Positions 2,746 to 63,645 of a stretch of DNA of 64,000 nt are shown here, in pieces. The stretch's first letter is position 1; each line of letters starts with the position of its first letter. The stretch is from Escherichia coli (GTDB lineage Bacteria > Pseudomonadota > Gammaproteobacteria > Enterobacterales > Enterobacteriaceae). A model generated the notes under the pieces. That model worked only from the letters and a program-made list of their open reading frames with translations. It did no database searches and was not told the DNA's origin. A program made the translations under genes and the position numbers. The stretch is from NCBI RefSeq assembly GCF_024298765.1, contig NZ_CP101210.1; one strand, 5' to 3'.

Positions 2746-3933
2746 TTATACAATCCGTGCAAAACCGGCGTCCAGATCGGCAATCAGATCGTCGACATCT
2801 TCCAGACCAATATGCAGGCGAATCAAGGTCCCGCTAAAATCGATCTCGCCTTGTGGGCGAATGGCGGCGATATGTTCTGGTTGATTTGCCAGGATCAACG
2901 ATTCATACCCGCCCCACGAGTAGGCCATGCTGAATAAACTGAAGTTATCCAGATAGTTCGCCAGCTCTTCATCATTGAGTTTTTTCTTAAGCACAAAGGA
3001 AAATAGCCCGCTGCTGCCTGTAAAGTCTCGTTTCCAGAATTCGTGTCCTTTACTGCCAGGCAGGGCAGGGTGGTTAACTCGCGCAACTTGCGGATGTTCT
3101 GCCAGCCATTCGGCCACTTTCAGACTGCTTTCATGATGTTGACGCAAACGCACACCTAATGTGCGCAGGCCACGGCTGGTTATATAGGCGGTATCGGCAT
3201 CGACCATCTGGCCCATCAGATAGGCATTTTCCCGTAGCTGCTCCCAGCAACGGGCATTGCACACGGCAGTGCCAATCATCGCATCTGAATGCCCAACCAG
3301 ATATTTGGTGGCGGCTTGAATAGAAACATCGATGCCAAAATCCAGCGCCTTAAACAGCACACCGGCTGCCCAGGTGTTGTCGATCATAATGATGGCATCC
3401 GGCACCACACTGCGCACGGCGGCAACAATCGCCGGAACGTCGTGGACTTCCATAGTGATGGAACCCGGCGATTCCAGAAACACGATTTTAGTGTTTGGCT
3501 GCAGATGCTTAACGATATCGGCACCAATCAGCGGATCAAACCACGATGTCGTTACGCCCAGTTTGCTGAGGATTTTGCTACAGAAATCCTGACTCGGTTC
3601 ATAGGCGGTGTTGGTCATCAACACATGATCGCCCTGTTCGACAAAAGCAAGAATCGAATTAGCAACCGCTGCCGCCCCGCAGGGAAATAGCGCGCAGCCT
3701 GCGCCACCTTCCAGTTCACACATCGCTTGTTGTAAGGAAAAATGGGTTAACGTTCCGCGCCGTCCATAGAACAACTCGCCATTGGCGCGATTGCGCGTCG
3801 CGTGCTTTTTGGCTTCCATACTCTCAAATACCAGCGAAGAAGCGCGCTGAATCACGCTATTTACCGCGCCGAGAGTGTATTTTTTGCTGCGTCCTGCATT
3901 CACCAGTTGAGTATCAAGCTTTTTGTCCGCCAT
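2746..3933 (-). CDS. metC: cystathionine beta-lyase (PLP-dependent)
   Basis: 395 aa from [15 protein letters not shown]; start codon = cat at 3931-3933; track ORF extends upstream from an alternative start. Confidence 0.9.
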
Positions 3934-4184
3934 GTCGGGATTCCTGTTTTTATACGTCTGGATGTCTAAACTAGCATGAATATTCGCGGGCGCATCCTGA
4001 AGAATTGGCATAAAGCAGAAAATTTTCGCAAATGGCGTGCTGGTGACTTTTTTACTGCGTAAACGCAAGGAAAAGAAAGCAAAGGTACGGCAGTATGCAA
4101 ATAGTAATGAGAACGACTATCAATTCGACGTAGTTTTGATATTATTATGCGCAGATTTTGTGACTTGCGTCCTGGAGATACACA

Positions 4185-4919
4185 GTGGGTAATAATTTAA
4201 TGCAGACGGACCTTTCCGTCTGGGGTATGTATCAGCACGCCGATATTGTCGTTAAGTGCGTGATGATTGGGCTTATTTTGGCCTCCGTAGTCACCTGGGC
4301 AATCTTCTTCAGTAAGAGCGTAGAGTTCTTCAATCAGAAGCGTCGCCTTAAGCGCGAGCAGCAACTGCTGGCTGAAGCGCGTTCCTTAAACCAGGCCAAC
4401 GATATCGCCGCTGATTTTGGTAGCAAAAGCTTAAGCCTGCATTTGCTCAATGAAGCGCAGAATGAGCTGGAACTGTCAGAAGGCAGCGACGATAACGAAG
4501 GTATTAAAGAACGTACCAGCTTCCGTCTGGAGCGTCGGGTCGCCGCAGTAGGTCGTCAAATGGGCCGTGGTAACGGCTATCTGGCAACCATCGGCGCGAT
4601 TTCGCCGTTCGTTGGGCTGTTTGGTACGGTCTGGGGCATCATGAACAGCTTTATTGGTATCGCGCAAACGCAGACTACTAACCTGGCAGTCGTTGCGCCG
4701 GGTATCGCAGAAGCTCTGTTAGCAACGGCAATCGGTCTGGTGGCAGCGATTCCGGCGGTCGTTATCTATAACGTATTCGCGCGTCAGATTGGCGGCTTTA
4801 AAGCGATGCTGGGTGATGTCGCAGCGCAGGTATTGTTGCTGCAAAGCCGTGACCTGGATCTGGAAGCCAGCGCCGCTGCGCATCCGGTTCGTGTCGCACA
4901 AAAATTACGCGCAGGATAA
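4185..4919 (+). CDS. exbB: TonB-system energiser ExbB
   Basis: 244-aa ORF with GTG start, MGNNLMQTDLSVWGMYQ; MotA/TolQ/ExbB family. Confidence 0.9.
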   Translation: MGNNLMQTDLSVWGMYQHADIVVKCVMIGLILASVVTWAIFFSKSVEFFNQKRRLKREQQLLAEARSLNQANDIAADFGSKSLSLHLLNEAQNELELSEGSDDNEGIKERTSFRLERRVAAVGRQMGRGNGYLATIGAISPFVGLFGTVWGIMNSFIGIAQTQTTNLAVVAPGIAEALLATAIGLVAAIPAVVIYNVFARQIGGFKAMLGDVAAQVLLLQSRDLDLEASAAAHPVRVAQKLRAG

Positions 4920-4925
4920 TGTCCG

Positions 4926-5351
4926 ATGGCAATGCATCTTAACGAAAACCTCGACGATAACGGCGAAATGCATGATATCAACGTGACGCCGTTTATCGAC
5001 GTGATGTTGGTTCTGCTGATTATCTTTATGGTGGCGGCACCGTTAGCGACGGTAGATGTGAAGGTTAACTTGCCTGCTTCTACCAGCACGCCGCAGCCGC
5101 GCCCGGAAAAACCGGTTTATCTGTCGGTGAAGGCAGACAACTCGATGTTTATCGGTAACGATCCGGTCACCGATGAAACAATGATTACGGCGTTGAATGC
5201 GTTAACCGAAGGCAAGAAAGACACCACCATCTTCTTCCGAGCGGATAAAACCGTCGATTACGAGACGTTGATGAAGGTAATGGATACGCTGCATCAGGCG
5301 GGTTACCTGAAGATAGGTCTGGTCGGCGAAGAAACCGCCAAAGCGAAATAA
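4926..5351 (+). CDS. exbD: TonB-system protein ExbD
   Basis: 141-aa ORF 7 nt after exbB; single TM segment. Confidence 0.9.
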   Translation: MAMHLNENLDDNGEMHDINVTPFIDVMLVLLIIFMVAAPLATVDVKVNLPASTSTPQPRPEKPVYLSVKADNSMFIGNDPVTDETMITALNALTEGKKDTTIFFRADKTVDYETLMKVMDTLHQAGYLKIGLVGEETAKAK

Positions 5352-9489: not shown

Positions 9490-9677
9490 TCAAACATACG
9501 TATTATCTTGCTTTAATTAATTACACTAATGCTTCTTCCCTTCGTTTTAGCGCCCCGCCGCAGTATCATGATATCGATAACCATAATAAATGTGTGGTAA
9601 ATGGCGCATCGATCGCATTATTGATTTTGCGATTGAGGCAAAATATATGCCAGGTCTTCGCAACGGAATAACTATAA

Positions 9678-10796
9678 ATGACTGGAGATAACACCCTCAT
9701 CCATTCTCACGGCATTAACCGTCGTGATTTCATGAAGCTTTGTGCAGCATTAGCCGCCACCATGGGGTTAAGTAGCAAAGCCGCTGCAGAGATGGCCGAA
9801 TCGGTTACTAACCCGCAGCGTCCGCCAGTTATCTGGATTGGCGCGCAGGAGTGCACCGGTTGTACGGAATCTCTGCTTCGTGCAACGCATCCAACGGTAG
9901 AAAACCTCGTACTGGAGACTATCTCTCTGGAGTATCACGAAGTGCTTTCCGCCGCCTTCGGTCATCAGGTCGAAGAGAACAAACATAACGCTCTCGAGAA
10001 GTACAAAGGGCAGTATGTGTTAGTGGTGGATGGTTCCATCCCATTAAAAGATAACGGTATTTATTGCATGGTTGCCGGTGAGCCGATTGTGGATCACATC
10101 CGCAAAGCGGCGGAAGGCGCAGCAGCCATTATCGCTATCGGTTCCTGCTCTGCGTGGGGCGGTGTTGCCGCAGCTGGAGTTAACCCAACTGGCGCAGTCA
10201 GCCTGCAAGAAGTTCTGCCAGGCAAAACCGTTATCAATATTCCGGGCTGCCCGCCGAACCCGCACAACTTCCTCGCGACCGTTGCGCACATCATCACTTA
10301 CGGCAAACCGCCGAAACTGGATGACAAAAACCGTCCGACCTTCGCCTATGGCCGTCTGATTCACGAACACTGTGAACGTCGCCCGCACTTCGATGCTGGT
10401 CGTTTTGCCAAAGAGTTCGGTGATGAAGGCCACCGCGAAGGCTGGTGCCTGTACCACCTCGGCTGTAAAGGGCCAGAAACTTACGGCAACTGCTCAACGC
10501 TGCAATTCTGCGATGTTGGCGGTGTGTGGCCGGTGGCGATTGGTCACCCGTGCTATGGCTGTAACGAAGAAGGTATCGGCTTCCATAAAGGCATCCATCA
10601 GCTTGCCAACGTCGAAAATCAGACTCCGCGTTCACAGAAACCGGATGTTAACGCTAAAGAGGGCGGCAACGTCTCTGCAGGCGCTATTGGTTTTCTCGGC
10701 GGTGTGGTTGGGCTGGTTGCCGGTGTCAGCGTGATGGCGGTGCGTGAACTGGGTCGTCAGCAAAAGAAAGATAACGCTGACTCACGGGGAGAATAA
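9678..10796 (+). CDS. hybO: hydrogenase 2 small subunit
   Basis: 372 aa; twin-arginine signal RRDFMK; Cys-rich Fe-S ligand motifs. Confidence 0.9.
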
Positions 10797-16229: not shown

Positions 16230-16320
16230 CTTTTGTAGGCCTGATAAGACGCGGCAGCGTCGCATCAGGCATTGTGCTCGATTGCCGGATGCGGCGTGAA
16301 CGCCTTATCCGGCCTGGATG
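16230..16320. repeat. REP/BIME-type extragenic palindromes
   Basis: gcctgataagacgcg...cgcatcaggc and gccggatgcggcg...cgccttatccggcc palindromic units between convergent hybG and yghU. Confidence 0.7.
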
Positions 16321-23529: not shown

Positions 23530-24879
23530 TTGGCGGGTTTTAACATCAAACATTGGTTTGCAGATGGCGCGTTTCGCACCATTATTCGCAATAGCGCCTG
23601 GTTAGGCTCCAGTAATGTCGTGAGCGCTTTGCTGGGTCTGTTGGCGCTCTCGTGTGCCGGTAAAGGGATGACGCCCGCCATGTTTGGCGTACTGGTGATT
23701 GTACAATCGTACGCCAAGTCGATCAGCGATTTTATTAAGTTTCAGACATGGCAGCTGGTGGTTCAGTACGGAACACCAGCATTAACCAACAATAATCCGC
23801 AGCAATTCCGCAATGTCGTCTCATTTTCCTTCTCGCTGGATATCGTCAGCGGCGCGGTGGCGATTGTCGGCGGCATTGCCTTACTCCCTTTTCTTTCCCA
23901 TTCATTAGGTCTGGATGACCAAAGCTTTTGGCTGGCAGCGCTGTATTGCACGCTCATTCCTTCAATGGCTTCCTCCACGCCGACCGGCATTCTGCGTGCG
24001 GTAGATCGCTTCGATCTAATTGCTGTACAGCAAGCGACGAAACCTTTTCTGCGCGCAGCGGGGAGCGTCGTTGCCTGGTATTTTGACTTTGGTTTTGCGG
24101 GTTTTGTTATTGCCTGGTACGCCTCGAATCTTGTTGGCGGCACCATGTACTGGTGGTTTGCCGCACGTGAATTACGCCGCAGAAATATCCATAACGCGTT
24201 CAAATTGAATCTGTTTGAGTCTGCCCGACACATCAAAGGCGCGTGGAGTTTTGTCTGGTCAACCAACATTGCCCATTCCATCTGGTCGGCGCGTAATTCG
24301 TGCAGCACAGTGTTGGTGGGGATCGTGTTAGGACCCGCTGCCGCCGGGTTATTTAAAATCGCCATGACATTCTTCGACGCCGCCGGAACGCCAGCGGGTT
24401 TACTGGGCAAAAGTTTTTACCCAGAGGTGATGCGTTTAGATCCGCGTACCACCAGACCGTGGTTGTTAGGCGTGAAGTCAGGTTTACTGGCGGGCGGAAT
24501 CGGTATTCTGGTGGCGCTCGCGGTGTTGATTGTCGGCAAGCCGCTCATTTCGCTGGTGTTTGGCGTTAAGTATCTCGAAGCGTATGACCTGATTCAGGTG
24601 ATGCTGGGCGCAATTGTGATCTCGATGCTGGGCTTCCCTCAGGAGTCATTGCTATTGATGGCGGGAAAACAGCGCGCTTTTCTCGTGGCGCAAACCATCG
24701 CCTCAATCGGCTACATCGTATTGCTGTTCATGTTCTGTCATCTGTTTGGCGTGCTGGGAGCAGCGTTTGCTTATTTCGGTGGTCAATGTCTGGATGTGGT
24801 GCTTTCGCTAATTCCGACCTTAAAGGCATTTTTTCAGCGCCATTCCTTGCTTTATAACGCAGCCGGAGAGAAATCCTGA
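23530..24879 (+). CDS. yghQ: MOP/Wzx-like multi-pass membrane flippase-family protein (start uncertain)
   Basis: Long hydrophobic ORF; first in-frame ATG at 23668; frame open upstream to TTG at 23530. Confidence 0.65.
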   Translation: MAGFNIKHWFADGAFRTIIRNSAWLGSSNVVSALLGLLALSCAGKGMTPAMFGVLVIVQSYAKSISDFIKFQTWQLVVQYGTPALTNNNPQQFRNVVSFSFSLDIVSGAVAIVGGIALLPFLSHSLGLDDQSFWLAALYCTLIPSMASSTPTGILRAVDRFDLIAVQQATKPFLRAAGSVVAWYFDFGFAGFVIAWYASNLVGGTMYWWFAARELRRRNIHNAFKLNLFESARHIKGAWSFVWSTNIAHSIWSARNSCSTVLVGIVLGPAAAGLFKIAMTFFDAAGTPAGLLGKSFYPEVMRLDPRTTRPWLLGVKSGLLAGGIGILVALAVLIVGKPLISLVFGVKYLEAYDLIQVMLGAIVISMLGFPQESLLLMAGKQRAFLVAQTIASIGYIVLLFMFCHLFGVLGAAFAYFGGQCLDVVLSLIPTLKAFFQRHSLLYNAAGEKS

Positions 24880-25703
24880 TGATGAGAAAATATTTCCCGC
24901 TAGAGGCGAGCGAGCGTCTATTTGTTGCGATTGAAGAAGATGATGTCGTTGATGCACAGGTCAGTTTGCCGCCGACTATCGCACTAAGTTGTACCACCGA
25001 AATCATCCATGATAATTACGCGTTATGCCTGCAATTCTGGCTCAATGGCGTCAATCGCCAGGAGTTACTGCGTTTAATATGCAAACAGGCCAAAGGCGAT
25101 GAGCTGACTGCTGATGAGCGCAAACAATTTAAATACATGCGAGCGCGCTACAAGCACCTGCGTTTTGCGCAACGGCTGTATTTAAAGAAGCATCAGGCCG
25201 GATTTTTATTCGGCAAAACGACCGTTTTTTTGGGGCGTTTTCAGGACGGCTTTCGTAACGGTAAGAAAAATATTGTGTCGTATTACGGCAACCTGTTACG
25301 GGTTTATTTAAGCTCTCCGGTCTGGTCGTTGGTGAACTATTCATTACGCCATAGCCAGTTAGAAAGCGTAAGCGGTTTTATTGCCTATCGGCAAAAGCAA
25401 ATGCATACCCTGAAAGAGATAATTGCCAAACCGCGACTAACCGGCAGGGAATTTCATGATGTGCGAAAAATCATCAGCCAGCAGGTTTCTTATTACGACA
25501 CCCTAAGATCGCTTGATCCTGAAAATAAAGAAGCGTTACAGATTTCCCGCTTCCTCGCCGCCATTAATGGCCTGATGGGGGATAAACACGACGACATGGT
25601 GGCGGATGATATGGAAAACCGCCAGTCGTATGATGCACCGATGGCGCTGGATAGCGATATTCGCCAGCGCTTAGAACTGCTGATTTCGCGTTTTCCGCTA
25701 TAA
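24879..25703 (+). CDS. hypothetical cytoplasmic protein, 274 aa (island gene)
   Basis: ATG overlaps yghQ stop (TGATG); GGAGAG RBS at 24865-24870; no domain recognised. Confidence 0.6.
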   Translation: MMRKYFPLEASERLFVAIEEDDVVDAQVSLPPTIALSCTTEIIHDNYALCLQFWLNGVNRQELLRLICKQAKGDELTADERKQFKYMRARYKHLRFAQRLYLKKHQAGFLFGKTTVFLGRFQDGFRNGKKNIVSYYGNLLRVYLSSPVWSLVNYSLRHSQLESVSGFIAYRQKQMHTLKEIIAKPRLTGREFHDVRKIISQQVSYYDTLRSLDPENKEALQISRFLAAINGLMGDKHDDMVADDMENRQSYDAPMALDSDIRQRLELLISRFPL

Positions 25704-25711
25704 CCGGAGCA

Positions 25712-26275
25712 ATGATGTCATCTCGTTTGATTATTGCGCTGATTATCATGCTCTTAGCCCCGGGTGTGCAGGCACACAATTTCGTCACTGGCAAAACGGT
25801 TACCCCCGTTTATATCCAGGAAGGCGGCGAGCTGCTTCGGAATAGCGACGACGAAATTCACTACCAAAAGTGGAACAGCACCCAATTGGCGGGAAAAGTT
25901 CGCATTATTCAGTATATCGCCGGGCGTAAGTCGGCGAAGAAAAAGAACTCACTGTTAATTAAAGCAGTTGAAGCGGCAAACTTTCCGCAGGATCGTTTTC
26001 AGCCCACCACCATTGTGAACACTGATGATGCCATCTTTGGTACCGGCTATTTTGTCGTTGGCAAAATCGAAAAAAATAAACGCCGCTATCCATGGGCGCA
26101 ATTCGTTATTGACGGCAATGGACAGGGACGCGTTGCCTGGCACTTGCAGGAGCAGAGTTCAACCATTCTGGTGCTGAATAAAACCGGGCAAATTCAGTGG
26201 GCAAAGGACGGCAGCCTGACGCCGGAAGAGGTAGATCATGTCATTGCGCTGGCGCAGAAGCTGATCAATGAATAA
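25712..26275 (+). CDS. YtfJ-family secreted/periplasmic protein paralog
   Basis: 187 aa; signal peptide MMSSRLIIALIIMLLAPGVQA; strong resemblance to E. coli YtfJ as recalled (KVRxxQHIAGR, TTIVNTDDAI, VQWAKDGxLTPEEV). Confidence 0.65.
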   Translation: MMSSRLIIALIIMLLAPGVQAHNFVTGKTVTPVYIQEGGELLRNSDDEIHYQKWNSTQLAGKVRIIQYIAGRKSAKKKNSLLIKAVEAANFPQDRFQPTTIVNTDDAIFGTGYFVVGKIEKNKRRYPWAQFVIDGNGQGRVAWHLQEQSSTILVLNKTGQIQWAKDGSLTPEEVDHVIALAQKLINE

Positions 26276-26304
26276 AAATTCAAAGGATTGAGGGCGTTAG
26301 TGAG

Positions 26305-27375
26305 ATGAAGCTGGTTGAACACTACATCATGCGTGGTACGCGCCGTCTGGTGCTGATTATCGTCGGTTTTCTGATCTTTATTTTCGCCAGCTACTCCGCA
26401 CAGCGTTATCTGACCGAAGCGGCAAATGGGACATTAGCTCTTGATGTTGTGCTGGATATCGTTTTCTACAAAGTGCTGATTGCACTGGAGATGTTGTTAC
26501 CTGTTGGACTGTATGTGTCAGTTGGCGTGACGCTAGGGCAGATGTATACCGACTCGGAAATTACCGCTATCTCTGCGGCGGGGGGCAGTCCGGGACGCTT
26601 GTACAAAGCCGTTCTTTATCTGGCGATACCGCTAAGTATTTTTGTCACCCTTCTGTCGATGTATGGTCGTCCGTGGGCTTATGCGCAGATTTATCAACTG
26701 GAGCAACAGTCACAGTCGGAGCTGGATGTTCGCCAGTTGCGGGCAAAGAAATTTAACACTAACGATAACGGACGAATGATCCTTTCGCAGACGGTTGATC
26801 AGGATAATAATCGCCTGACTGATGCGCTGATTTATACTTCTACTGCTAATCGAACCCGCATTTTCCGCGCCCGTTCGGTTGATGTGGTTGACCCATCACC
26901 TGAGAAACCGACCGTTATGTTGCATAACGGGACCGCCTATCTTCTCGATCATCAGGGGCGTGACGACAACGAACAGATCTACCGTAATCTGCAATTACAT
27001 CTGAATCCGCTGGATCAAAGCCCTAACGTCAAACGCAAAGCAAAATCGGTCACGGAGCTGGCGCGCTCCGCCTTTCCTGCCGATCATGCCGAACTGCAAT
27101 GGCGACAAAGCCGTGGCCTGACAGCATTGTTGATGGCGCTGCTGGCCATTTCATTAAGTCGGGTAAAACCGCGGCAAGGGCGATTTTCAACGTTATTGCC
27201 ACTGACGTTGCTGTTTGTTGCCATTTTTTATGGCGGCGACGTCTGCCGTACGCTGGTGGCTAACGGCGCGATTCCCCTCATTCCTGGTTTGTGGTTAGTA
27301 CCCGGACTCATGCTAATGGGCCTGCTGATGTTGGTCGCACGCGACTTCTCTTTGCTGCAGAAATTTTCCCGATGA
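26305..27375 (+). CDS. LptF-like permease (YjgP/YjgQ family) paralog
   Basis: 356 aa; 6-TM pattern with large periplasmic loop; YTDSEIT and KPRQGRF motifs resembling LptF. Confidence 0.7.
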   Translation: MKLVEHYIMRGTRRLVLIIVGFLIFIFASYSAQRYLTEAANGTLALDVVLDIVFYKVLIALEMLLPVGLYVSVGVTLGQMYTDSEITAISAAGGSPGRLYKAVLYLAIPLSIFVTLLSMYGRPWAYAQIYQLEQQSQSELDVRQLRAKKFNTNDNGRMILSQTVDQDNNRLTDALIYTSTANRTRIFRARSVDVVDPSPEKPTVMLHNGTAYLLDHQGRDDNEQIYRNLQLHLNPLDQSPNVKRKAKSVTELARSAFPADHAELQWRQSRGLTALLMALLAISLSRVKPRQGRFSTLLPLTLLFVAIFYGGDVCRTLVANGAIPLIPGLWLVPGLMLMGLLMLVARDFSLLQKFSR

Positions 27376-28451
27376 ATGTTTTCAGTCGCTATTTAATCCG
27401 TCATCTCTTTCTCGGTTTTGCCGCCGCCGCAGGGCTATTGCTGCCGCTTTTTACCACCTTCAACCTGATTAACGAACTGGATGATGTCAGCCCGGGTGGT
27501 TATCGCTGGACTCAGGCGGTGCTGGTGGTGCTGATGACCTTACCGCGCACACTGGTCGAACTTTCGCCGTTTATCGCCTTATTGGGAGGGATTGTCGGCC
27601 TGGGGCAGTTATCGAAAAACAGTGAGCTTACCGCCATTCGCAGCACGGGGTTTTCTATCTTCCGTATTGCACTGGTGGCGCTGGTTGCCGGGATATTGTG
27701 GACTGTTTCATTAGGCGCGATAGATGAGTGGGTGGCGTCGCCATTGCAGCAACAGGCGCTGCAAATCAAATCGACTGCCACTGCGTTGGGGGAGGACGAT
27801 GACATTACCGGCAATATGCTGTGGGCCAGGCGTGGTAATGAATTTGTGACGGTGAAATCGCTGAACGAGCAGGGCCAGCCGGTGGACGTGGAGATATTTC
27901 ATTACCGCGATGATCTCTCGCTCGAATCCTACATTTATGCGCGCAGTGCTACCATTGAAGACGACAAAACGTGGATCCTGCATGGTGTGAATCATAAAAA
28001 ATGGCTGAATGGCAAAGAAACGCAGGAAACATCTGATAATCTTCCCTGGCAATCGGCCTTCACCAGTATGAATCTTGAAGAGTTATCGATGCCGGGAAAT
28101 ACTTTTTCTGTCCGTCAACTTAATCATTACATCCATTATTTGCAGGAAACCGGGCAACCCAGCAGCGAATACCGCCTTGCACTGTGGGAAAAACTGGGAC
28201 AACCCATCTTGACCCTGGCGATGATTTTGCTGGCTGTGCCGTTTACCTTTAGCGCCCCGCGTTCGCCTGGGATGGGTAGCCGTCTCGCTGTAGGCGTCAT
28301 CGTTGGCTTACTCACCTGGATCAGCTATCAAATCATGGTCAATCTGGGATTGTTATTTGCGTTGAGCGCACCTGTTACCGCGCTCGGTTTACCGGTAGCG
28401 TTTGTGCTGGTGGCGTTGAGCCTGGTGTATTGGTATGACAGACAACATTAA
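27372..28451 (+). CDS. LptG-like permease (YjgP/YjgQ family) paralog
   Basis: ATG at 27372 overlaps upstream stop (ATGA); MNVFSRYLIRHLF N-terminus typical of LptF/G family; 359 aa. Confidence 0.7.
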   Translation: MNVFSRYLIRHLFLGFAAAAGLLLPLFTTFNLINELDDVSPGGYRWTQAVLVVLMTLPRTLVELSPFIALLGGIVGLGQLSKNSELTAIRSTGFSIFRIALVALVAGILWTVSLGAIDEWVASPLQQQALQIKSTATALGEDDDITGNMLWARRGNEFVTVKSLNEQGQPVDVEIFHYRDDLSLESYIYARSATIEDDKTWILHGVNHKKWLNGKETQETSDNLPWQSAFTSMNLEELSMPGNTFSVRQLNHYIHYLQETGQPSSEYRLALWEKLGQPILTLAMILLAVPFTFSAPRSPGMGSRLAVGVIVGLLTWISYQIMVNLGLLFALSAPVTALGLPVAFVLVALSLVYWYDRQH

Positions 28452-28485
28452 ACCCGCCGTGGCGCAACACCACAGCGGGCTCACA

Positions 28486-29658
28486 TTACTGCTTCAGAGT
28501 AGCAAATGCCTGAATGATGGCATCGATTTGCTCACGACTGTGGGCAGCGTTTACGCTACAGCGCAGCAGCGTGATGCCTGCAGGCGCGGCAGGTGGCAGG
28601 ATAAGATTCACATAAACGCCCAGCGAAATAAGCTCGCGCCAGATGCGTAAACCTTCCTCTTTCGAACCGATTATTACTGGCACTACCGGGCTAATATGTG
28701 AACTTAACTCATAACCCAGTTTTTGCAGACCGTCATACAGATGGTTGGCGTTATCCATCAGTTTTTGCCGCAGCTCTGGTTGTGTGGAAATGGTTCTTAA
28801 CGACGAGCGCACGGTCGCAATGCAGGACGGAGAAGGAGAGGCGGTAAAAATATACGGGCGGCTGCCGTAGCGCAGCACTTCCATCGCTTCTGAACCCACG
28901 GCAAAACCACCAATGGAAGCCAAACTTTTACTGAAGGTGCCGACGATAATATCCACGTCGTCTTCAACGCCAACGGCTTCAACCAGTCCGCGGCCTGTTG
29001 CGCCTAACACGCCAAACGAATGTGCTTCATCGACAATCAAATAACCACCGAGACGACGTTTGATATCAACAATTTCTGCCAGCGGCGCAACGTCACCGAG
29101 CATACTGTAGATGCCTTCAACGATAATAATCGCCTCTTTCGCCCGTTCACCGAGGCGGACCATGCGCCGTTCCAGATCGTTGACGTCATTATGGCGGAAA
29201 CGAATAATCTCTGCGCCGCCGAGAGAACAGGCGTCATAAATACTGGCGTGGCTGTCGGCATCCAGTAACACCACGGCGTTATGGTCGGCAAGTGCGCTGA
29301 TGACACCTAAATTAGCGGTATAACCGGTTGAAAAAACGATAGCGGTAGGGCGATTGAAAAACTCGGCAATCTCTTTCTCTAACGCCAGATGCGGCGCATA
29401 ACTGCCGTTTGCCATACGAGAACCGGTGGTGCCAGTGCCTTGGGCCGCTAACGCTGCCTGACCTTCGCGGATAGCATCATGATTAAAGGTTAAACCGAGA
29501 TAATTATTGGTCCCGGCCAGAATCACTTTTTTATTGCCGATCCGGCCTTCGGTGGCGGAATACACTTCATCAATACAGGTGCCAAATGGTGTTAACCCGT
29601 TGTCACTAAATTGCAGGCGCTCGCCAGCAAGGCGCGCATATTTATCGTATAGCCCCAT
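28486..29658 (-). CDS. alpha-oxoamine synthase, serine palmitoyltransferase-like (PLP-dependent)
   Basis: 390 aa; DEAHSFG and GTFSKSLAS motifs (Lys244 codon at 28927-28929) typical of SPT/KBL/AONS family. Confidence 0.75.
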   Translation of the reverse strand: MGLYDKYARLAGERLQFSDNGLTPFGTCIDEVYSATEGRIGNKKVILAGTNNYLGLTFNHDAIREGQAALAAQGTGTTGSRMANGSYAPHLALEKEIAEFFNRPTAIVFSTGYTANLGVISALADHNAVVLLDADSHASIYDACSLGGAEIIRFRHNDVNDLERRMVRLGERAKEAIIIVEGIYSMLGDVAPLAEIVDIKRRLGGYLIVDEAHSFGVLGATGRGLVEAVGVEDDVDIIVGTFSKSLASIGGFAVGSEAMEVLRYGSRPYIFTASPSPSCIATVRSSLRTISTQPELRQKLMDNANHLYDGLQKLGYELSSHISPVVPVIIGSKEEGLRIWRELISLGVYVNLILPPAAPAGITLLRCSVNAAHSREQIDAIIQAFATLKQ

Positions 29659-29906
29659 TATTTATTCTCCAGCCATGGAAGTAGAGTTTCCATTAATTGC
29701 GCAGGGGTTTTGACATCCAGCAGAATATTAATAGGAATGGAAATATCGAATCTGTCTTCCAGCATCATTAAGAGATCCATCACTTTGATCGACTCCAGGC
29801 CAAGATCGTTGACGAGATCGCTGTCGGGCTTAATTTCCACACCGTTTTCGACCAAATCCTGTAAACAGGAAAGGATGTAATCCATTACTATTTCACGATT
29901 TACCAT
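29658..29906 (-). CDS. dedicated acyl carrier protein
   Basis: 82 aa; DLGLESIKVMDLLMMLEDRF helix-2 region with candidate phosphopantetheine Ser; stop overlaps AOS start (TAATG). Confidence 0.65.
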   Translation of the reverse strand: MVNREIVMDYILSCLQDLVENGVEIKPDSDLVNDLGLESIKVMDLLMMLEDRFDISIPINILLDVKTPAQLMETLLPWLENK

Positions 29907-29937
29907 AGAAACGTTAACACACCTTTAAACAAGACAA

Positions 29938-30852
29938 TCAAAATAGCCCGTTGCGTAATGCGTGTTCCAGGCTAATCCCGGGAAACCAATTAATATCTTC
30001 AGAAATACGGTTATTATTTGCCGACCAGTCGGCGTGGGTTAATTCACGAATTTTCGAGCGGGTCAGCATAGGTTCTTTACCTGCCAGGCGACTCAACGCA
30101 GTACTGATATCCGCAAGGCAGGTGAGTAGCGGCAGAGGAATGCCAACCATCCGCACAGAACCACAACGGGCTTCGGCGGCAAGCTGTCGTACGCGTTGCC
30201 AGTCATAGCCGCCAGCGACGCCATCGCATAATTCATAGGTTTGCGTCTGTACAGTTTCGGCGTTTAACCACTGACCCACTGCTTGCGCAAAATCGGTGAC
30301 GTGCAGGAAAGAGAGTTGTGTATCTGGCGCACCAAGTCGTGGCAGCAGGCCGCGCAGCATCCAGTCAAACAGCGGTTTTAACTCTTTATCGCCGGGACCA
30401 TACACGGCTGTCGGGCGAAAAATGCCCAGCGTAATTTCGTCAGCCATTGCGATCAGTCGTTGTTCGGCGACGTGTTTGGAATTTGCGTACCAGGAGAGTT
30501 CGGGATGGCGCGCCGCCAGCGAAGAGATAAACAGAAAACGTTGGCAAAAGCCGCTCTCTTTTGCCGCTTGCATCAGGCGCAGGCTGCCGTCAACGTTACA
30601 GCGGGTAAAAATCTCTTCTTTGTGTCCGCGCACTTGTCCGGCGCAATGGACCACCGCGCTGGCTCCGGCAACCAGTTCGCTAAGCGAATGTGTATCTTCC
30701 AGCGAACCGCGCACCCAGATGAGATTATCATTGACGTGAGCGCGGGCAGTACGCGTCAATGTGCGAACGTGAAAGCCGCGGGCGAGCAGGTTATCGATAA
30801 TATATTTACCGATAAACCCGGTAGCGCCCGTCACCGCGACAGTTTGATTCAT
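29938..30852 (-). CDS. NAD(P)-dependent epimerase/dehydratase-fold reductase
   Basis: ATG at 30852 (MNQTVAVTGATGFIGKYI), 304 aa; YANSK catalytic dyad; track ORF has an N-terminal extension overlapping the upstream gene. Confidence 0.7.
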   Translation of the reverse strand: MNQTVAVTGATGFIGKYIIDNLLARGFHVRTLTRTARAHVNDNLIWVRGSLEDTHSLSELVAGASAVVHCAGQVRGHKEEIFTRCNVDGSLRLMQAAKESGFCQRFLFISSLAARHPELSWYANSKHVAEQRLIAMADEITLGIFRPTAVYGPGDKELKPLFDWMLRGLLPRLGAPDTQLSFLHVTDFAQAVGQWLNAETVQTQTYELCDGVAGGYDWQRVRQLAAEARCGSVRMVGIPLPLLTCLADISTALSRLAGKEPMLTRSKIRELTHADWSANNNRISEDINWFPGISLEHALRNGLF

Positions 30853-32573
30853 GCCAGGGATTCCTGCACATGAAGGCTTGCAGCATAAGCCTTCTGATAA
30901 CGTTTTTTCGCTTCCGCACGGGCAGGCTTGCCGGAGGACGTTCGGGGAATACTGTGGGGCGGCAACAGATCGATAGCCGCGGTCACGCCAAATTCGCTTT
31001 GGATCCGTGCTACCAGTGCGTGGATAAGCTGCCCACGACGTTCTTCGTCGCTGATCCGACACTGGATCTGCAAAATGATTTTTTCCTGGGCGGTAACAAA
31101 AGCAATCGCATCGCCAGAATGAATTTCCGGTTCCTGTTCCGCAATGTATTCAATATCCTGCGGCCAGATATTACGGCCACGAATAATAATCAGATCTTTA
31201 ATGCGTCCGGTGACATACAGATAACCGTCCAGCAGATAACCGAGGTCGCCGGTGTCTAACCAGCCCGTCGCGGCAATCTCGTCTTGCGAAACCTGGTCGC
31301 CAAAGTACCCGCTCATCAGGCTGGGGCCGGAGATGCAAATATGGCCTACCACACGTTCCGCGACAGGTATATCTGCTTCATTGCGGATTTCAATGCCATG
31401 TTCCGGCAACGCTTTACCGCAGTTGACGAAAGTCGATACGGCGCGTGTTTCAGCACCCGGCGCGACGGCTTTACCCTGGTATTCGAGGATGTCGCGATCC
31501 ACTTCGTTAACCACAACCCCGCAGGCTTCATCAGAGAAGCTGACAGCCAGCGCATTTTCTGCCAGTCCGTAGCACGGCATGAAAGTTTTATCGTCAAAGT
31601 TAACCTGACGAAAACATTCAGCGAATTGATGGAGTTGTTCTGCGGAGATCGGTTCTGCTCCAATACCAGCGACGCGCCAGCAGGAAAGATCCAGTTCAGC
31701 GAGATCTTTTTCATTCACGCGGCGCTGGCACAATTCATAGCCAAACGGCGGTGCAACGGAAACGGTGCCGCGATTTTTACTGATCAATTTAAGCCATTGC
31801 AGAGGACGCATGGCAAAATCCTGAGTGCGCAAATAATCTACTGAAAGCTGCGTGGCGACGGGGGTCAGGAGAAAGCCGACCAGTCCCATATCATGGTAGA
31901 AAGGCAGCCAGGAGACGCAGCGGTCGCCAGGGCGTAATTTAATGCCATCGTGGCTTATAGCACGTAGATTAGCCATCACTTCGTGATGGGTGATAATGAC
32001 GCCACGGGGAAAACGGGTGCTGCCGGAGGTGTACTGGAGGTAGGCGATATCGTTCGGAACTGGACGCTGGAGCGCAACATCGGCTTCCGGTAATGCCTTA
32101 AACCAGGCGTGGCTTAAAACATGTAATTCGGGGTTGTTGTTATGCGTCGCGGCATTGACCAGCGGTAACCACTCATCACCAGTGATAATGGCTGCGGGCT
32201 GGCAACTTGCCAGTAAACCCTGCAGTTTGGCGCTCCAGGAATCCCGCTGACCGACGCCCATTGGAATCGCCAACGGGACGGCGACTAAGCCGGCACACTG
32301 GCAGGAAAAAAAAGCCTCTACAAACCCGCTACTCGTTTCGGCAATCAGCGCCACGCGATCGCCTTTTTTCAGGTTCAGCGATAACAACCGCTTCGCACCA
32401 GCTTCGGCACGCGCTTTTAACGTCTGATATTCCAGTTGATCTTCAAGTTGGCAACGTCTGTCATAAAAATTCATTCCGGCGCTACTCAGAGCGGCGTAGT
32501 CCAAAGCATCAACCAGCGTTGGAAAATCGGCATAGCGCATAGGTAGGGAATGCGTAAAGATTTTATTAGACAT
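30849..32573 (-). CDS. fatty acyl-AMP ligase / acyl-ACP synthetase-like adenylating enzyme
   Basis: About 574 aa from ATG at 32573; YTSGSTRFPRG core motif; GRIKDLIIIRGRNIWPQDIE; stop overlaps next start. Confidence 0.7.
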   Translation of the reverse strand: MSNKIFTHSLPMRYADFPTLVDALDYAALSSAGMNFYDRRCQLEDQLEYQTLKARAEAGAKRLLSLNLKKGDRVALIAETSSGFVEAFFSCQCAGLVAVPLAIPMGVGQRDSWSAKLQGLLASCQPAAIITGDEWLPLVNAATHNNNPELHVLSHAWFKALPEADVALQRPVPNDIAYLQYTSGSTRFPRGVIITHHEVMANLRAISHDGIKLRPGDRCVSWLPFYHDMGLVGFLLTPVATQLSVDYLRTQDFAMRPLQWLKLISKNRGTVSVAPPFGYELCQRRVNEKDLAELDLSCWRVAGIGAEPISAEQLHQFAECFRQVNFDDKTFMPCYGLAENALAVSFSDEACGVVVNEVDRDILEYQGKAVAPGAETRAVSTFVNCGKALPEHGIEIRNEADIPVAERVVGHICISGPSLMSGYFGDQVSQDEIAATGWLDTGDLGYLLDGYLYVTGRIKDLIIIRGRNIWPQDIEYIAEQEPEIHSGDAIAFVTAQEKIILQIQCRISDEERRGQLIHALVARIQSEFGVTAAIDLLPPHSIPRTSSGKPARAEAKKRYQKAYAASLHVQESLA

Positions 32574-32600
32574 ATACACCACGAAAAAATTGGATATCAA

Positions 32601-32943
32601 AAATAAAATGACAATAATGCGGTGGATTATATAGGCATAAAAGATAAATGAGATAGTATTTTCATCAGTGTGAAAATGAACATTGATTTAAATAATGAGT
32701 TTGAGTTTTTTTGTTTTTATTGTGAATGATATTTAATTTATGAATATATTAAGAAGAAGCCTTGTCCGGTCGCCTTAAATCGACAAAAGGCATTGTGGCG
32801 CTTCTGTGTAGTCTCTGACCTTATCGTAATCATTAATAATACTATTTATTCGTCGTTTGTATTCATTGGGTTGATTGTTAAGGTGCCGTTCGTTGCTGTT
32901 GCAACCTGTTTGTCACCGTTAATTATTTGTTACCCACAGAACT
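32601..32943. promoter_or_regulatory. AT-rich divergent intergenic region (promoters for lipid operon and yghO)
   Basis: About 340 bp markedly AT-rich with A/T tracts, flanked by divergent start codons. Confidence 0.5.
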
Positions 32944-34086
32944 ATGGAATGCGATCTGCTGATGATTAAAATTGAAAAAGTAATTAATAAAAATGACCTT
33001 AAGGCATTTATCGCTTTTCCGTCATCACTTTATCCCGACGATCCAAACTGGATACCCCCTTTATTCATTGAACGCAACGAGCATTTGTCTGCGAAAAATC
33101 CGGGGACGGACCATATCATCTGGCAGGCGTGGGTGGCAAAAAAAGCGGGGCAGATAGTTGGGCGTATTACCGCGCAAATCGATACCTTGCACCGCGAGCG
33201 TTACGGCAAAGATACCGGTCATTTCGGCATGATTGACGCCATTGATGATCCGCAGGTTTTTGCCGCGTTGTTTGGCGCAGCGGAAGCGTGGTTGAAGTCA
33301 CAAGGTGCAAGTAAGATCAGCGGTCCTTTCAGCCTGAATATCAATCAGGAAAGCGGATTACTGATTGAAGGTTTCGATACACCACCCAGTGCGATGATGC
33401 CACACGGTAAACCGTGGTATGCCGCGCATATTGAACAACTGGGTTATCACAAAGGCATTGATTTACTGGCGTGGTGGATGCAGCGAACCGATCTCACTTT
33501 CTCTCCGGCGCTAAAAAAACTGATGGATCAGGTGCGCAAAAAAGTGACCATTCGCTGCATCAATCGCCAGCGGTTTGCCGAAGAGATACAGATCCTGCGT
33601 GAGATTTTCAATTCTGGCTGGCAGCACAACTGGGGATTTGTGCCGTTTACCGAACATGAATTCGCGACCATGGGCGATCAACTTAAATATCTGGTGCCGG
33701 ACGATATGATCTACATCGCTGAGATTGATTCTGCACCCTGCGCGTTTATTGTTGGCTTGCCGAACATCAACGAGGCGATTGCCGATCTGAACGGATCGCT
33801 CTTTCCCTTCGGCTGGGCAAAATTGCTGTGGCGTTTGAAAGTCAGCGGTGTGCGAACTGCGCGAGTGCCGCTGATGGGCGTGCGGGACGAGTATCAGTTC
33901 AGCCGCATCGGCCCGGTAATTGCGCTGTTATTGATTGAAGCCTTACGCGATCCGTTTGCCCGTCGGAAGATCGATGCGCTGGAGATGTCATGGATCCTCG
34001 AAACCAATACAGGCATGAATAACATGCTGGAACGCATTGGGGCGGAGCCGTACAAGCGTTACCGATTGTATGAAAAGCAGATTTGA
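32944..34086 (+). CDS. yghO: GNAT-fold acyltransferase-like protein (uninterrupted reading frame)
   Basis: 380-aa ORF from ATG 32944 (alternative ATG 32962); divergent from lipid operon. Confidence 0.65.
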   Translation: MECDLLMIKIEKVINKNDLKAFIAFPSSLYPDDPNWIPPLFIERNEHLSAKNPGTDHIIWQAWVAKKAGQIVGRITAQIDTLHRERYGKDTGHFGMIDAIDDPQVFAALFGAAEAWLKSQGASKISGPFSLNINQESGLLIEGFDTPPSAMMPHGKPWYAAHIEQLGYHKGIDLLAWWMQRTDLTFSPALKKLMDQVRKKVTIRCINRQRFAEEIQILREIFNSGWQHNWGFVPFTEHEFATMGDQLKYLVPDDMIYIAEIDSAPCAFIVGLPNINEAIADLNGSLFPFGWAKLLWRLKVSGVRTARVPLMGVRDEYQFSRIGPVIALLLIEALRDPFARRKIDALEMSWILETNTGMNNMLERIGAEPYKRYRLYEKQI

Positions 34087-41495: not shown

Positions 41496-41850
41496 TAGCG
41501 TCAAAAAAAGCCCCGGCAAGATTTATTGTCGGGGCTATGATAGTAACTGCGGTAGTACATTTATCCCGGAAATAACCGGAGCGATTATCAGGGGTTAACA
41601 ATATTAAATACCCGTAGCGCATCACTAGCGGGATTAAAACAACAATATGGACATCTTAACGATACTCTGCGCCTGCGTGTGCGGAACAGAAACCCTTACC
41701 CGATATACTTGTTATGCCAGAGGTAGCAATTGCGTTAGCGGCGTACTGTTGCTGTAAAGTATAACGCCTATATTTTACAGTTCAGTCCTCTTTTGCTTAT
41801 TACAACCTTAAGTATATCAAGCATATAAAGATAATAAGAGACTGAACAAT

Positions 41851-56281: not shown

Positions 56282-56845
56282 GTGCCTGAACGCGGATTCA
56301 CTCTTCTGGAAATCATGCTGGTGATTTTCCTTATCGGCCTTGCCAGTGCGGGCGTGGTACAGACGTTTGCGACCGATTCTGAATCGCCCGCGAAAAAAGC
56401 GGCGCAGGATTTTCTGACTCGCTTTGCGCAGTTTAAAGACAGGGCAGTGATCGAAGGGCAGACACTCGGTGTACTAATCGACCCGCCGGGATACCAGTTT
56501 ATGCAGCGTCGTCAGGGGCAGTGGTTGCCCGTTTCTGCGACCCGGTTATCGGCACAGGTTACGGTGCCGAAACAGGTGCAGATGCTGTTACAACCCGGAA
56601 GTGATATCTGGCAGAAGGAATATGCGCTGGAGCTGCAGCGTCGCCGCCTGACGCTGCACGATATTGAACTGGAGCTGCAAAAAGAGGCGAAAAAGAAGAC
56701 ACCGCAGATCCGTTTTTCGCCTTTTGAACCCGCCACGCCGTTTACGCTGCGCTTCTACTCGGCGGCGCAAAACGCATGTTGGGCGGTAAAGCTGGCGCAC
56801 AATGGCGTGTTATCCCTCAATCAATGTGATGAGAGGATGCCATGA
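56282..56845 (+). CDS. gspH: type II secretion minor pseudopilin H
   Basis: GTG start; MPERGFTLLEIMLV prepilin signature. Confidence 0.8.
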   Translation: MPERGFTLLEIMLVIFLIGLASAGVVQTFATDSESPAKKAAQDFLTRFAQFKDRAVIEGQTLGVLIDPPGYQFMQRRQGQWLPVSATRLSAQVTVPKQVQMLLQPGSDIWQKEYALELQRRRLTLHDIELELQKEAKKKTPQIRFSPFEPATPFTLRFYSAAQNACWAVKLAHNGVLSLNQCDERMP

Positions 56846-57213
56846 AGCGCGGATTTACCTTGCTGGAAGTGATGCTCGCGCTGGCGATTTTTGCGTTGGC
56901 CGCCATGGCGGTGTTACAGATTGCCAGCGGTGCGCTGAGTAATCAGCAGATTCTTGAGGAGAAAACGGTAGCGGGCTGGGTAGCTGAAAACCAGACCGCG
57001 CTGCTTTACCTGATGACCCGTGAACAACGAGCGGTCAGGCACCAGGGCGAGAGTGATATGGCAGGAAGCCGCTGGTACTGGCGAACCACACCGCTGAGTA
57101 CAGGCAACGCGCTGCTCCAGGCGGTGGATATTGAAGTCAGCCTTCACGAAGACTTTTCGCCGGTGATTCAGTCACGACGCGCCTGGTTTAGCGCCGTGGG
57201 AGGCCAACAGTGA
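56842..57213 (+). CDS. gspI: type II secretion minor pseudopilin I
   Basis: MKRGFTLLEVMLA; overlaps gspH stop. Confidence 0.85.
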   Translation: MKRGFTLLEVMLALAIFALAAMAVLQIASGALSNQQILEEKTVAGWVAENQTALLYLMTREQRAVRHQGESDMAGSRWYWRTTPLSTGNALLQAVDIEVSLHEDFSPVIQSRRAWFSAVGGQQ

Positions 57214-57815
57214 GAAGGACTCGCGCTGGTTTCACGTTACTGGAAATACTGGTGGCGATAGCCATTTTTGCCTCGCTGGCACTGATGGCGCAGCAGGTGA
57301 CTAACGGCGTCGCACGCGTGAATAGCGCCGTCGCCGATCACGATCAAAAACTAAACCTCATGCAGCAAACGATGAGTTTTCTGACCCACGATCTGACCCA
57401 AATAATGCCGCGTCCGGTAAGAAGCGATCAGGGCCAGCGTGAACCAGCGTTACTGGCTGGCCCTGGCGTGCTGGCGTCTGAGAGTGGAGGAATGCGTTTT
57501 GTGCGCGGCGGTGTGGTTAACCCGTTGATGCGTCTGCCACGCAGCAATCTGCTCACCGTCGGTTACCGCATTCATGACGGCTATCTCGAACGGTTAGCCT
57601 GGCCGCTGACCGACGCAGCAGGCAGCGTGAAGCCGACAATGCAAAAGTTGATTCCGGCGGATTCGCTCCGCTTGCAGTTCTACGACGGCACGCGCTGGCA
57701 GGAGAGCTGGTCGTCAGTACAGGCGATCCCTGTGGCAGTGCGCATGACCCTGCATTCGCCGCAATGGGGCGAGATTGAACGCATCTGGTTGTTACGCGGG
57801 CCGCAATTATCATGA
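57210..57815 (+). CDS. gspJ: type II secretion minor pseudopilin J
   Basis: GTG start; RAGFTLLEILVA prepilin signature. Confidence 0.8.
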   Translation: MRRTRAGFTLLEILVAIAIFASLALMAQQVTNGVARVNSAVADHDQKLNLMQQTMSFLTHDLTQIMPRPVRSDQGQREPALLAGPGVLASESGGMRFVRGGVVNPLMRLPRSNLLTVGYRIHDGYLERLAWPLTDAAGSVKPTMQKLIPADSLRLQFYDGTRWQESWSSVQAIPVAVRMTLHSPQWGEIERIWLLRGPQLS

Positions 57816-58789
57816 TCACCTCACCACCAAAACGCGGAATGGCACTGGTCGTGGTGCTGGTATTGCTGGCGGTTATGATGCTGGTGACCATCACGCTTTC
57901 CGGGCGAATGCAGCAACAACTTGGGCGAACGCGCAGCCAGCAGGAGTACCAGCAGGCGCTGTGGTACAGCGCCAGTGCGGAAAGCCTGGCGTTGAGCGCA
58001 CTCAGTCTGAGCCTGAAAAATGAAAAGCGCGTGCATCTGGCGCAGCCGTGGGCTTCCGGCCCTCGTTTTTTCCCACTGCCGCAGGGGCAAATTGCCGTCA
58101 CCCTGCGTGACGCCCAGGCCTGCTTTAACCTGAATGCCCTCGCTCAGCCGACAACGGCGTCGCGTCCTATCGCGGTACAACAACTGATTGCCCTGATCTC
58201 GCGCCTGGATGTGCCTGCTTATCGGGCCGAACTGATAGCCGAAAGCCTGTGGGAGTTTATTGACGAGGACCGCAGCGTGCAGACGCGTCTGGGGCGTGAA
58301 GACAGCGAGTATCTCGCCCGCTCGGTGCCGTTCTACGCCGCCAATCAACCGCTGGCCGATATCAGTGAGATGCGCGTGGTACAGGGAATGGACGCCGGAC
58401 TTTATCAAAAACTGAAACCGCTGGTCTGTGCGCTGCCGATGACCCGCCAGCAAATCAACATCAATACCTTAGACGTCACGCAAAGTGTGATTCTTGAGGC
58501 GCTGTTTGACCCGTGGTTAAGCCCTGTTCAGGCGCGGGCGTTATTACAACAACGTCCGGCGAAGGGCTGGGAAGATGTCGATCAGTTTCTTGCTCAGCCG
58601 CTACTTGCAGACGTCGATGAGCGTACTAAAAAACAGCTAAAAACCATCCTGAGCGTGGACAGCAATTACTTCTGGCTGCGTTCAGATATCACCGTGAATG
58701 AGATTGAACTGACGATGAATTCGTTAATTGTCCGCATGGGCCCACAACACTTTTCTGTTCTCTGGCATCAGACAGGAGAAAGTGAGTGA
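57812..58789 (+). CDS. gspK: type II secretion minor pseudopilin K
   Basis: 325 aa; N-terminal TM helix; overlaps gspJ stop. Confidence 0.85.
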   Translation: MITSPPKRGMALVVVLVLLAVMMLVTITLSGRMQQQLGRTRSQQEYQQALWYSASAESLALSALSLSLKNEKRVHLAQPWASGPRFFPLPQGQIAVTLRDAQACFNLNALAQPTTASRPIAVQQLIALISRLDVPAYRAELIAESLWEFIDEDRSVQTRLGREDSEYLARSVPFYAANQPLADISEMRVVQGMDAGLYQKLKPLVCALPMTRQQININTLDVTQSVILEALFDPWLSPVQARALLQQRPAKGWEDVDQFLAQPLLADVDERTKKQLKTILSVDSNYFWLRSDITVNEIELTMNSLIVRMGPQHFSVLWHQTGESE

Positions 58790-60668: not shown

Positions 60669-60915
60669 GAAACTGGTTATATAACCAATTGTTTTGTATC
60701 GACTGTTTTATCCTTGTTCTTTTTGAGGCCACCAATGAGGCCCCCATGTGCAATTCGAATTCTTTTGACGCTATAATCCCTCTTTCTTGTGGTTTGTTGT
60801 AATCATTTTGTCTGGTTCGATATGCTGAATCGCGGAATCGAAGTGACAACAAAATACAGAGATTTATAAAATACCTGGCTACCTGTGTTAGGGAGCGTTA
60901 ACGCACAGATTTTGT

Positions 60916-61242
60916 TTATGGCTGCCAGAAATGATCTGATGGTTTGTCGTCTGGCTCTGCAAGTACCCTGTTGATATCCCGGGAACCATGAACGATACGT
61001 TCGATACGAACTTCAGTATCCAGTACCCTGAACAGCAGAAGGTAACGACCATACGAACAACCTCTGATCCCAGCCCCTAACTCGGGTCTTTCTCTGTAGA
61101 GTACTGGCGATTCGGCTATCAACAGACATTGTTGGTAAAGCTCTTCGGTAAAACTGATTGCACGGACAGGATTATCCTGAGCGATCCAGTCACCTATAGC
61201 TTCAAGATCGTGTTCTGCTAATGGTGAAACAGTCAGTTTCAT
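60916..61242 (-). CDS. ParE/RelE-family type II toxin
   Basis: 108 aa; 4-nt overlap with upstream antitoxin gene; ParE-like sequence. Confidence 0.7.
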   Translation of the reverse strand: MKLTVSPLAEHDLEAIGDWIAQDNPVRAISFTEELYQQCLLIAESPVLYRERPELGAGIRGCSYGRYLLLFRVLDTEVRIERIVHGSRDINRVLAEPDDKPSDHFWQP

Positions 61243-61502: not shown

Positions 61503-61573
61503 GGTTATTTTCTCGCCGATTGATTACTATCAATTAATAATAGTTAATATTCGCGAATTGTAAAATACCTCTT

Positions 61574-62440: not shown

Positions 62441-62524
62441 AATCGATATTCCTTTTTGCAGATAAATGAAAACGCCAGCCCTGTTCAGGCTGGCGTCAGT
62501 GGAATGAAGTCTGGTGAGTAAGAC

Positions 62525-63599: not shown

Positions 63600-63645
63600 C
63601 TTAAGTTCTCTGTAACTGGTAGTGCTAAAGGTGAGATATTCGGGG

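Follow-up and report, generated by a model that had tools for sequence, protein, structure and literature searches.

In Escherichia coli K-12, the operator at which MetJ controls metC was listed by Augustus and Spicer (2011, PMC3228920), whose supplementary table gives its metboxes as 'agacatccagacgtat', that is, two boxes with a score of 18.92 bits located 18 nt from the start codon. The same study reported a gel shift of the metC–exbB intergenic region with MetJ, and the operators already known from E. coli met genes, including that of metC, were covered by its lacZ repression assay. In binding experiments with an 18-bp metC duplex, two MetJ dimers were bound in a SAM-dependent manner, and the value of EC50 (half-maximal MetJ) was 96 nM with SAM and 2900 nM without it. 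This duplex was termed the shortest natural operator (PMC2650099, PMC3267017).

A Fur site upstream of the divergent gene exbB was first proposed by Eick-Helmerich and Braun in 1989, as cited in Chen et al. (2007, PMC2189734). Chen et al. used a cutoff of 10 bits for Fur sites. They listed the exbB cluster in their Table 4 with 19.1 bits, three walkers spanning 31 bp, the strongest site at -70 and a positive gel shift, and they reported that a box once proposed upstream of exbD showed no Fur binding. Fur ChIP-exo peaks at exbB in MG1655, W3110 and O157:H7 Sakai were listed in supplementary tables by Gao et al. (2023, PMC10164565). The same study assigned both exbB and exbD to the core regulon of Fur, and the two genes were de-repressed in all nine strains tested (log2 1.9-5.5).

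We compared these descriptions with a stretch of E. coli DNA of 64,000 nucleotides, which is called the window below. We think, with a probability of about 95%, that the 251-bp region between metC and exbB in the window carries two independent and already characterised repressor operators, that of MetJ for metC and that of Fur for exbB. The binding of the repressors and the regulation of each gene have been shown in the literature on the K-12 sequence, which is identical to the present one apart from position 4132. That is, both sites are already known, being the specific sites described in K-12 and not merely members of the same families.

The metC–exbB locus and its surroundings

The features of the locus are listed in Table 1. 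The stretch 3700-4400, which lies over metC and exbB, matched 5,423 of the 5,426 complete E. coli genomes with an identity of 95-99.9%. The two genes diverge from the 251-bp intergenic region (3934-4184), in which the only difference from K-12 MG1655 is the single base at 4132.

Table 1. Features of the metC–exbB locus in the window. Mean identity is the mean of the column identities over 58 unique Enterobacteriaceae-type sequences.
Feature	Position	Strand	Mean identity	Description and basis
metC (cystathionine beta-lyase)	2746-3933	-		ATG 3933->3931; open reading frame list and annotation of the matching E. coli entries in RefSeq
MetJ operator, two contiguous 8-bp metboxes	3952-3967	-	0.93	AGACATCC 3967->3960 and AGACGTAT 3959->3952; published matrix, K-12 identity, conservation
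Predicted extended -10 element of metC	3968-3976	-		TGcTAGTTT, abutting the metboxes; conservation
Variable spacer	3977-4047		0.52	
Conserved block	4048-4073		0.90	
Full Fur cluster, 31 bp	4094-4124	.	0.93	Strong 19-mer with weak overlapping sites 6 and 12 bp upstream
Fur box, strongest 19-mer	4106-4124	.		AATGAGAACGACTATCAAT; 7-1-7 core TGAGAAC-g-ACTATCA (4108-4122); centre 4115, at -70 from exbB GTG 4185
Predicted extended -10 element of exbB	4137-4145	+	0.96	TGaTATtAT, motif TGATATTAT; conservation
exbB Shine-Dalgarno sequence	4174-4178	+		GGAGA, 6 nt before GTG 4185; near-invariant in the cross-genus alignment
exbB	4185-4919	+		GTG start; open reading frame list and K-12 annotation
exbD	4926-5351	+		Downstream of exbB; exbB and exbD (4185-5351) form an operon under Fur control, co-regulation reported

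Position 4132, which is A in the window and C in both K-12 and O157:H7 TR01, is located outside both operators, and the A is a private variant in the spacer of the exbB promoter. When a 35-bp probe ending at 4132 was used, the best of the 5,389 E. coli matches ended one base before it, and the A appears to be carried by none of the complete genomes of the collection. Since this column varies across genera (C in 45, T in 29 and G in 7 sequences), the A probably represents either a neutral change or an error of sequencing.

In many E. coli RefSeq genomes annotated by NCBI PGAP, the product of exbB is named 'tol-pal system-associated acyl-CoA thioesterase', which is the description of YbgC and not of ExbB. 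The K-12 record gives the correct name, 'Ton complex subunit ExbB'.

Several other parts of the window differ from reference strains. Mapping of the annotation of O157:H7 TR01 onto the window failed past about 20.8 kb, where the strains differ, and K-12 was used instead. The spacer between exbD and yghA (5352/5353) is 38 bp long here, and about 233 bp more are present in K-12 and O157:H7 TR01. An accessory segment of 8.4 kb (24598-32984) occupies the place where K-12 has a copy of IS5 next to yghO/yghQ. Its genes code for a YtfJ-like protein, two permeases of the LptF/LptG family, a class I/II aminotransferase, an NAD-dependent epimerase and an AMP-binding enzyme, and its AT-rich end contains several sub-threshold matches to the Fur matrix described below, at 32.7-32.8 kb. 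About 8 kb within the region of the secretion genes yghJ-pppA-yghF/E/D (51003-59000) are deleted in K-12. The match to K-12 stops at 60671 inside the 3' end of pheV, where no intact tRNA was found, and is followed up to 64000 by genes of the island type, for a ParE toxin, DUF4942 and DUF5983; this part (60671-64000) represents the border of an island associated with pheV. The matches to Rfam were the C0719 sRNA at 41551-41772 on the minus strand (294 bits) and the REP-derived naRNA4 at 16238-16314 (90 bits), the latter also on the opposite strand.

Identification of the two operators in the window

An earlier note on this DNA, made by reading the letters, had placed MetJ boxes just upstream of metC and described both 8-mers as agreeing with the met-box at six of eight positions. 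The boxes are present as quoted, reading from 3967 to 3952. Against the consensus AGACGTCT, the count of six of eight is correct for AGACATCC, but AGACGTAT agrees at seven of eight, so that the pair agrees at 13 of 16. In the 64-kb window the 16-mer consensus with up to three mismatches was matched once, as compared to 0.13 matches expected, and at least one match was obtained in 10 of 100 shuffles.

The note had also named a weight-matrix scan and a comparison with the K-12 sites as ways of checking its proposals. For MetJ, we used the matrix and the thresholds of Augustus and Spicer, by which every single box needs no less than a quarter of the consensus score, and the boxes together no less than the consensus score itself (12.58 bits). 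The stretch 3952-3967 was the sole qualifying site in the 64 kb, with a value of 8.96 + 9.96 = 18.92 bits, and 0.7% of 300 first-order Markov simulations of 64 kb produced a site of at least 18.9 bits. The arrangement is that of a MetJ operator, for which at least two boxes are expected. That is, the boxes are contiguous and in register, and 18 nt (aaaaacaggaatcccgac, including the Shine-Dalgarno sequence) separate them from the ATG of metC, a distance below the limit of about 75 bp that is typical of MetJ operators upstream of genes of the methionine pathway. We also considered a third metbox at either flank, but the 8-mers GCTAGTTT and AAAAACAG scored about -9 with the published matrix (hand calculation). 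A third metbox is present in some other genera, namely Atlantibacter, Cedecea and Entomohabitans.

For exbB, the note had pointed to a sequence at about 4100-4125 resembling the AT-rich Fur consensus. The quoted 26-mer is present on the plus strand (aatagtaatgagaacgactatcaatt), and the best 19-mer, 4106-4124, is contained in it. When the window was searched for the Fur consensus TGATAATNATTATCA with up to three mismatches, the stretch 4108-4122 was among five matches, as compared to 2.2 expected, which is no significant enrichment. We therefore built a matrix from footprinted K-12 Fur regions. This matrix is symmetrised and 19 bp long, and it was trained on the 12 footprinted K-12 regions in Table 3 of Chen et al. 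(2007), from which exbB was excluded.

With this matrix, 4106-4124 gave the top score of the 64-kb window, 17.1 bits, the leave-one-out scores of the training regions ranging from 8.7 to 23.9 bits. Window-wide this score is only marginal, as 7% of simulated 64-kb sequences contain a match that high, but the number of matches of at least 17.1 bits expected within the 251-bp intergenic region was 0.0003-0.002. The two secondary sites of the cluster, at 4100 (5.3 bits) and 4094 (3.6 bits), were both weak with our own matrix. The peak of Fur ChIP-exo in MG1655 (3150091-3150113) is located 15-37 bp upstream of the site coordinate of Chen et al. (3150076), for which the same coordinate system was used, corresponding to about 4078-4100 in the window. 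That is, the peak abuts the box at the weak upstream walkers and is not centred on the 19-mer, and the position in W3110 is equivalent.

The other matches to the Fur matrix (38897, 61533, 32832, 10047, 56147 and 9573; 12-15 bits) were rejected, their scores being in the range of chance (mean maximum 13.6) and most of them being located in coding or AT-rich accessory DNA. Two of these, 9573-9591 (12.4 bits) and 10047-10065 (13.4 bits), flank the intergenic region between yghW and hybO, and both are inside coding sequence. A Fur ChIP-exo peak at hybO has been reported in several strains (Gao et al. 2023, PMC10164565).

Taken together, the metC operator agrees letter for letter with that of K-12, and the position of the exbB site is that of the Fur site gel-shifted at -70. 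The statement of the earlier note that both genes are known regulon members is also borne out by the published gel shift for MetJ and by the gel shift, the ChIP-exo data and the core regulon for Fur. Thus, the reading from the letters had placed both operators within a few bases. The discovery value is little, as these are textbook regulon members with published evidence on sequence, binding and expression.

Conservation across genera and the block between the operators

Orthologous loci were retrieved from Enterobacterales reference genomes with a degenerate DNA pattern for the N-terminus of ExbB (WGMYQHADI). Among the 120 loci obtained, 84 had a divergent metC upstream of exbB, and 82 of the intergenic regions could be used. 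Located at -68 to -84 relative to the start codon, a Fur box of at least 10 bits was found in every one of the 82, and in nearly all of them its sequence is AATGAGAAC-N-ACTATCAAT. The half-site positions beside the central base are conserved at or near 100%, and the sole freely varying position is the central base itself (G in 35, T in 35 and C in 12 regions), which is the unspecified, non-contacted position of the 7-1-7 motif. The block TGTAAATAsTAATGAGAACnACTATCAATTC is kept from Escherichia to Tatumella. Within E. coli, 35-bp probes at an identity of at least 99% matched 5,354 genomes for the Fur site and 5,104 genomes for the MetJ site.

These data bear on whether the sequence before exbB might be a chance AT-rich resemblance to the Fur consensus, having no function, with exbB being under indirect iron control. 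The lack of enrichment in the consensus search and the figure of 7% in simulated sequences would be compatible with such a coincidence, and, according to Chen et al. (2007, PMC2189734), the exbB site had not been detected by the earlier model of McHugh et al. On the other hand, an oligonucleotide with the exbB site was gel-shifted by Chen et al., the ChIP-exo peaks were obtained in three strains (PMC10164565), and the 19-mer is kept in all 82 regions, in two families, amid diverged surroundings. We consider that a chance resemblance has practically no likelihood and that it was effectively refuted already; the sequence is the Fur operator of exbB.

The distribution of the metboxes is narrower. 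They passed the published thresholds in 57 of the 82 regions, all of the Enterobacteriaceae type, including those of Escherichia, Salmonella, Citrobacter, Enterobacter, Kosakonia, Cedecea and Buttiauxella, and among the 82 regions scanned none was found in those of Erwinia, Pantoea or Tatumella. This agrees with the report that the metC metboxes are present in only about half of Enterobacterales (PMC3228920). As the Erwiniaceae keep the Fur box and lose the metboxes, the sequence comparison indicates that the metC and exbB operators evolve independently. The exbB Fur box thus leaves a clean cross-genus footprint extending to the Erwiniaceae, whereas the metboxes are limited to regions of the Enterobacteriaceae type.

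The two operators might still be parts of one shared control region, in which MetJ affects exbB or Fur affects metC. The divergent promoters do lie within one 251-bp region, and a MetJ gel shift was positive for a fragment used as the 'exbB' operator. This shift is explained by the fact that the fragment is the same DNA as the metC operator region. Furthermore, the centres of the operators are about 155 bp apart, each beside its own conserved -10 element, the Erwiniaceae show independent evolution of the two, cross-regulation was reported to be absent, and metC is not in the Fur tables of Gao et al. (2023, PMC10164565). We therefore regard shared control as very improbable, and retain the reading of two separate operators.

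A side observation concerns the start of exbB. At the position of the E. coli GTG, the codon is GTA, which is not a start codon, in the loci L022, L023, L029, L030, L053, L067, L081, L096, L099, L108, L120 and L122. These loci belong to Pantoea and Tatumella, including L081, which groups with Pantoea in spite of its label Enterobacter ludwigii. Therefore, ExbB must begin elsewhere in those genomes. The upstream Shine-Dalgarno sequence GGAG is kept in these loci, and ExbB may possibly begin at an ATG located five codons further downstream.

Between the MetJ and Fur operators, a block of 24 bp (4050-4073; TTTTACTGCGTAA[A/G]CGCAA[G/A]GAAA) attracted our attention. In the 58 Enterobacteriaceae-type regions its identity was 0.90, as compared to 0.52-0.65 in its flanks, and the block is as conserved as both operators. 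In the cross-genus alignment it was absent from the regions of Erwinia, Pantoea and Tatumella. The block contains an inverted repeat, TGCG-N4-CGCA, in 54 of the 58 sequences, and a direct repeat resembling that of CpxR, GTAAA-N5-GGAAA, of which the form GTAAR-N5-RGAAD is present in 47 of the 58. No regulator assigned to this block was found in the literature. We tentatively suggest that the block might be bound by a further transcription factor that acts on metC, exbB or both, which we regard as possible and yet rather doubtful.

The same doubt applies in general to further regulators, e.g., FNR and CpxR, which would add to the picture of two repressors and not replace it. The conservation of the block, which matches that of known operators, speaks for such a regulator. 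In an FNR ChIP-chip study, a peak without a recognisable site was reported at exbB/metC (3,150,195 in the version-2 coordinates of K-12; about 3996 in the window), and exbB was reported to be more repressed anaerobically. A screen with a CpxR matrix predicted a site at 4069-4083 (GGAAAagaaaGCAAA), which is adjacent to the block and less conserved, and metC mRNA fell upon Cpx activation in a CpxR study. However, no FNR or CpxR binding assay on metC–exbB DNA has been reported. With regard to the FNR consensus, reading of the sequence gave half-site matches only (ATCAA in the Fur box and TTGAT in the -10 region), and we rejected an FNR site under the ChIP-chip peak as unsupported. The expression changes persisted in a cpxR mutant background (metC 0.08 vs 0.06), which argues against direct control by CpxR. 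We hold additional regulation to be an uncertain and rather doubtful supplement to MetJ and Fur. If it were true, a third-factor site at 4050-4073 might explain the signal in FNR ChIP-chip or the decrease in metC mRNA upon Cpx activation, and within the intergenic region this block alone might still hold something new.

Predicted promoters and comparison with known operators

A standard scan of 3850-4260 for -35/-10 promoters and terminators found neither a promoter nor a terminator. Judging by the conserved motifs, the promoters of metC and exbB both seem to belong to the extended -10 class. On the metC strand (3976->3968), the element TGnTAGTTT has a near-invariant TG and TAG, which are kept in the Erwiniaceae and where the metboxes are absent, and the position 'n' (3974) varies freely. 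On the exbB strand, the TG (4137-4138) is present in all 82 regions and is followed by TATnAT (4140-4145). From these elements, the start of metC is predicted at about 3961-3963, inside the first metbox, and that of exbB at about 4152, in which case the -35 position (4117-4122, CTATCA) would fall inside the Fur box. The distance from the end of the Fur box to the conserved TGnTATnAT element is 15 bp.

The exbB element also lies in the AT-rich sequence TTTGATATTATTATGCGCA (4135-4153), which is nearer to exbB than 4100-4125 and might itself be taken for the functional Fur operator. By eye it contains TGATA..TTAT, like a half-site of Fur, and its conservation is equal to that of the Fur box (mean identity 0.96). 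As a Fur box, this stretch was our first guess by eye, and it was rejected, since its score with the Fur matrix was 1.3 bits and its conservation is of the -10 type, the invariant TG followed by TATnAT being the pattern of an extended -10 promoter. In addition, the published Fur site is at -70, as compared to about -41 for 4135-4153. We judge it very improbable that Fur acts at this stretch, and place the operator at 4106-4124.

On this basis, we propose the following mechanism. Two SAM-loaded MetJ dimers cooperatively occupy the tandem metboxes at 3952-3967, as was shown in the literature, and repress metC. Because the metboxes cover the predicted start of metC, just downstream of the extended -10 element, MetJ located there would block initiation when methionine and SAM are plentiful. 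On the other side, dimers of Fe2+-Fur bind to 4106-4124, with the weaker sites reaching to 4094, and would occlude the recognition of the -35 position of exbB. As the Fur box would cover the -35 of the predicted extended -10 promoter, exbBD would be repressed at iron sufficiency and de-repressed under iron limitation. Each operator, separated from the other by about 140 bp, would act on its own promoter only. This steric mechanism builds on the predicted transcription starts.

Compared with the metC operator of K-12 (the 'F-metC' duplex in PMC2650099 and PMC3267017), the present operator shares the 16-mer agacatccagacgtat, its distance to the ATG and its score, and there is no difference between the two operators. 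The other met operators (metA, metBJ, metE/R, metF, metK, metN and mmuP) have 3-5 boxes, whereas that of metC is the minimal version with two boxes.

Similarly, compared with the exbB Fur cluster of K-12 (Chen et al. 2007), the centre at -70, the three overlapping sites over 31 bp and the sequence are identical, and there is no difference in the site. The score was 17.1 bits here and 19.1 bits in Chen et al., and this difference is due to the training sets, ours consisting of the 12 footprinted regions without exbB and theirs of 24 sites including exbB. The exbB site is known by gel shift and ChIP, whereas the classical Fur boxes are known by footprinted regions (Table 3 of Chen et al.). Its core, TGAGAAC-n-ACTATCA, has three mismatches to TGATAAT-n-ATTATCA, and plain consensus searches miss it for this reason. 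What the exbB site shares with the classical Fur boxes (tonB, fepA-fes, cir, fhuF, entC and sodA) is the 7-1-7 inverted repeat, the overlaps at a spacing of 6 bp and, as predicted for exbB, the location over the promoter of an iron-uptake gene.
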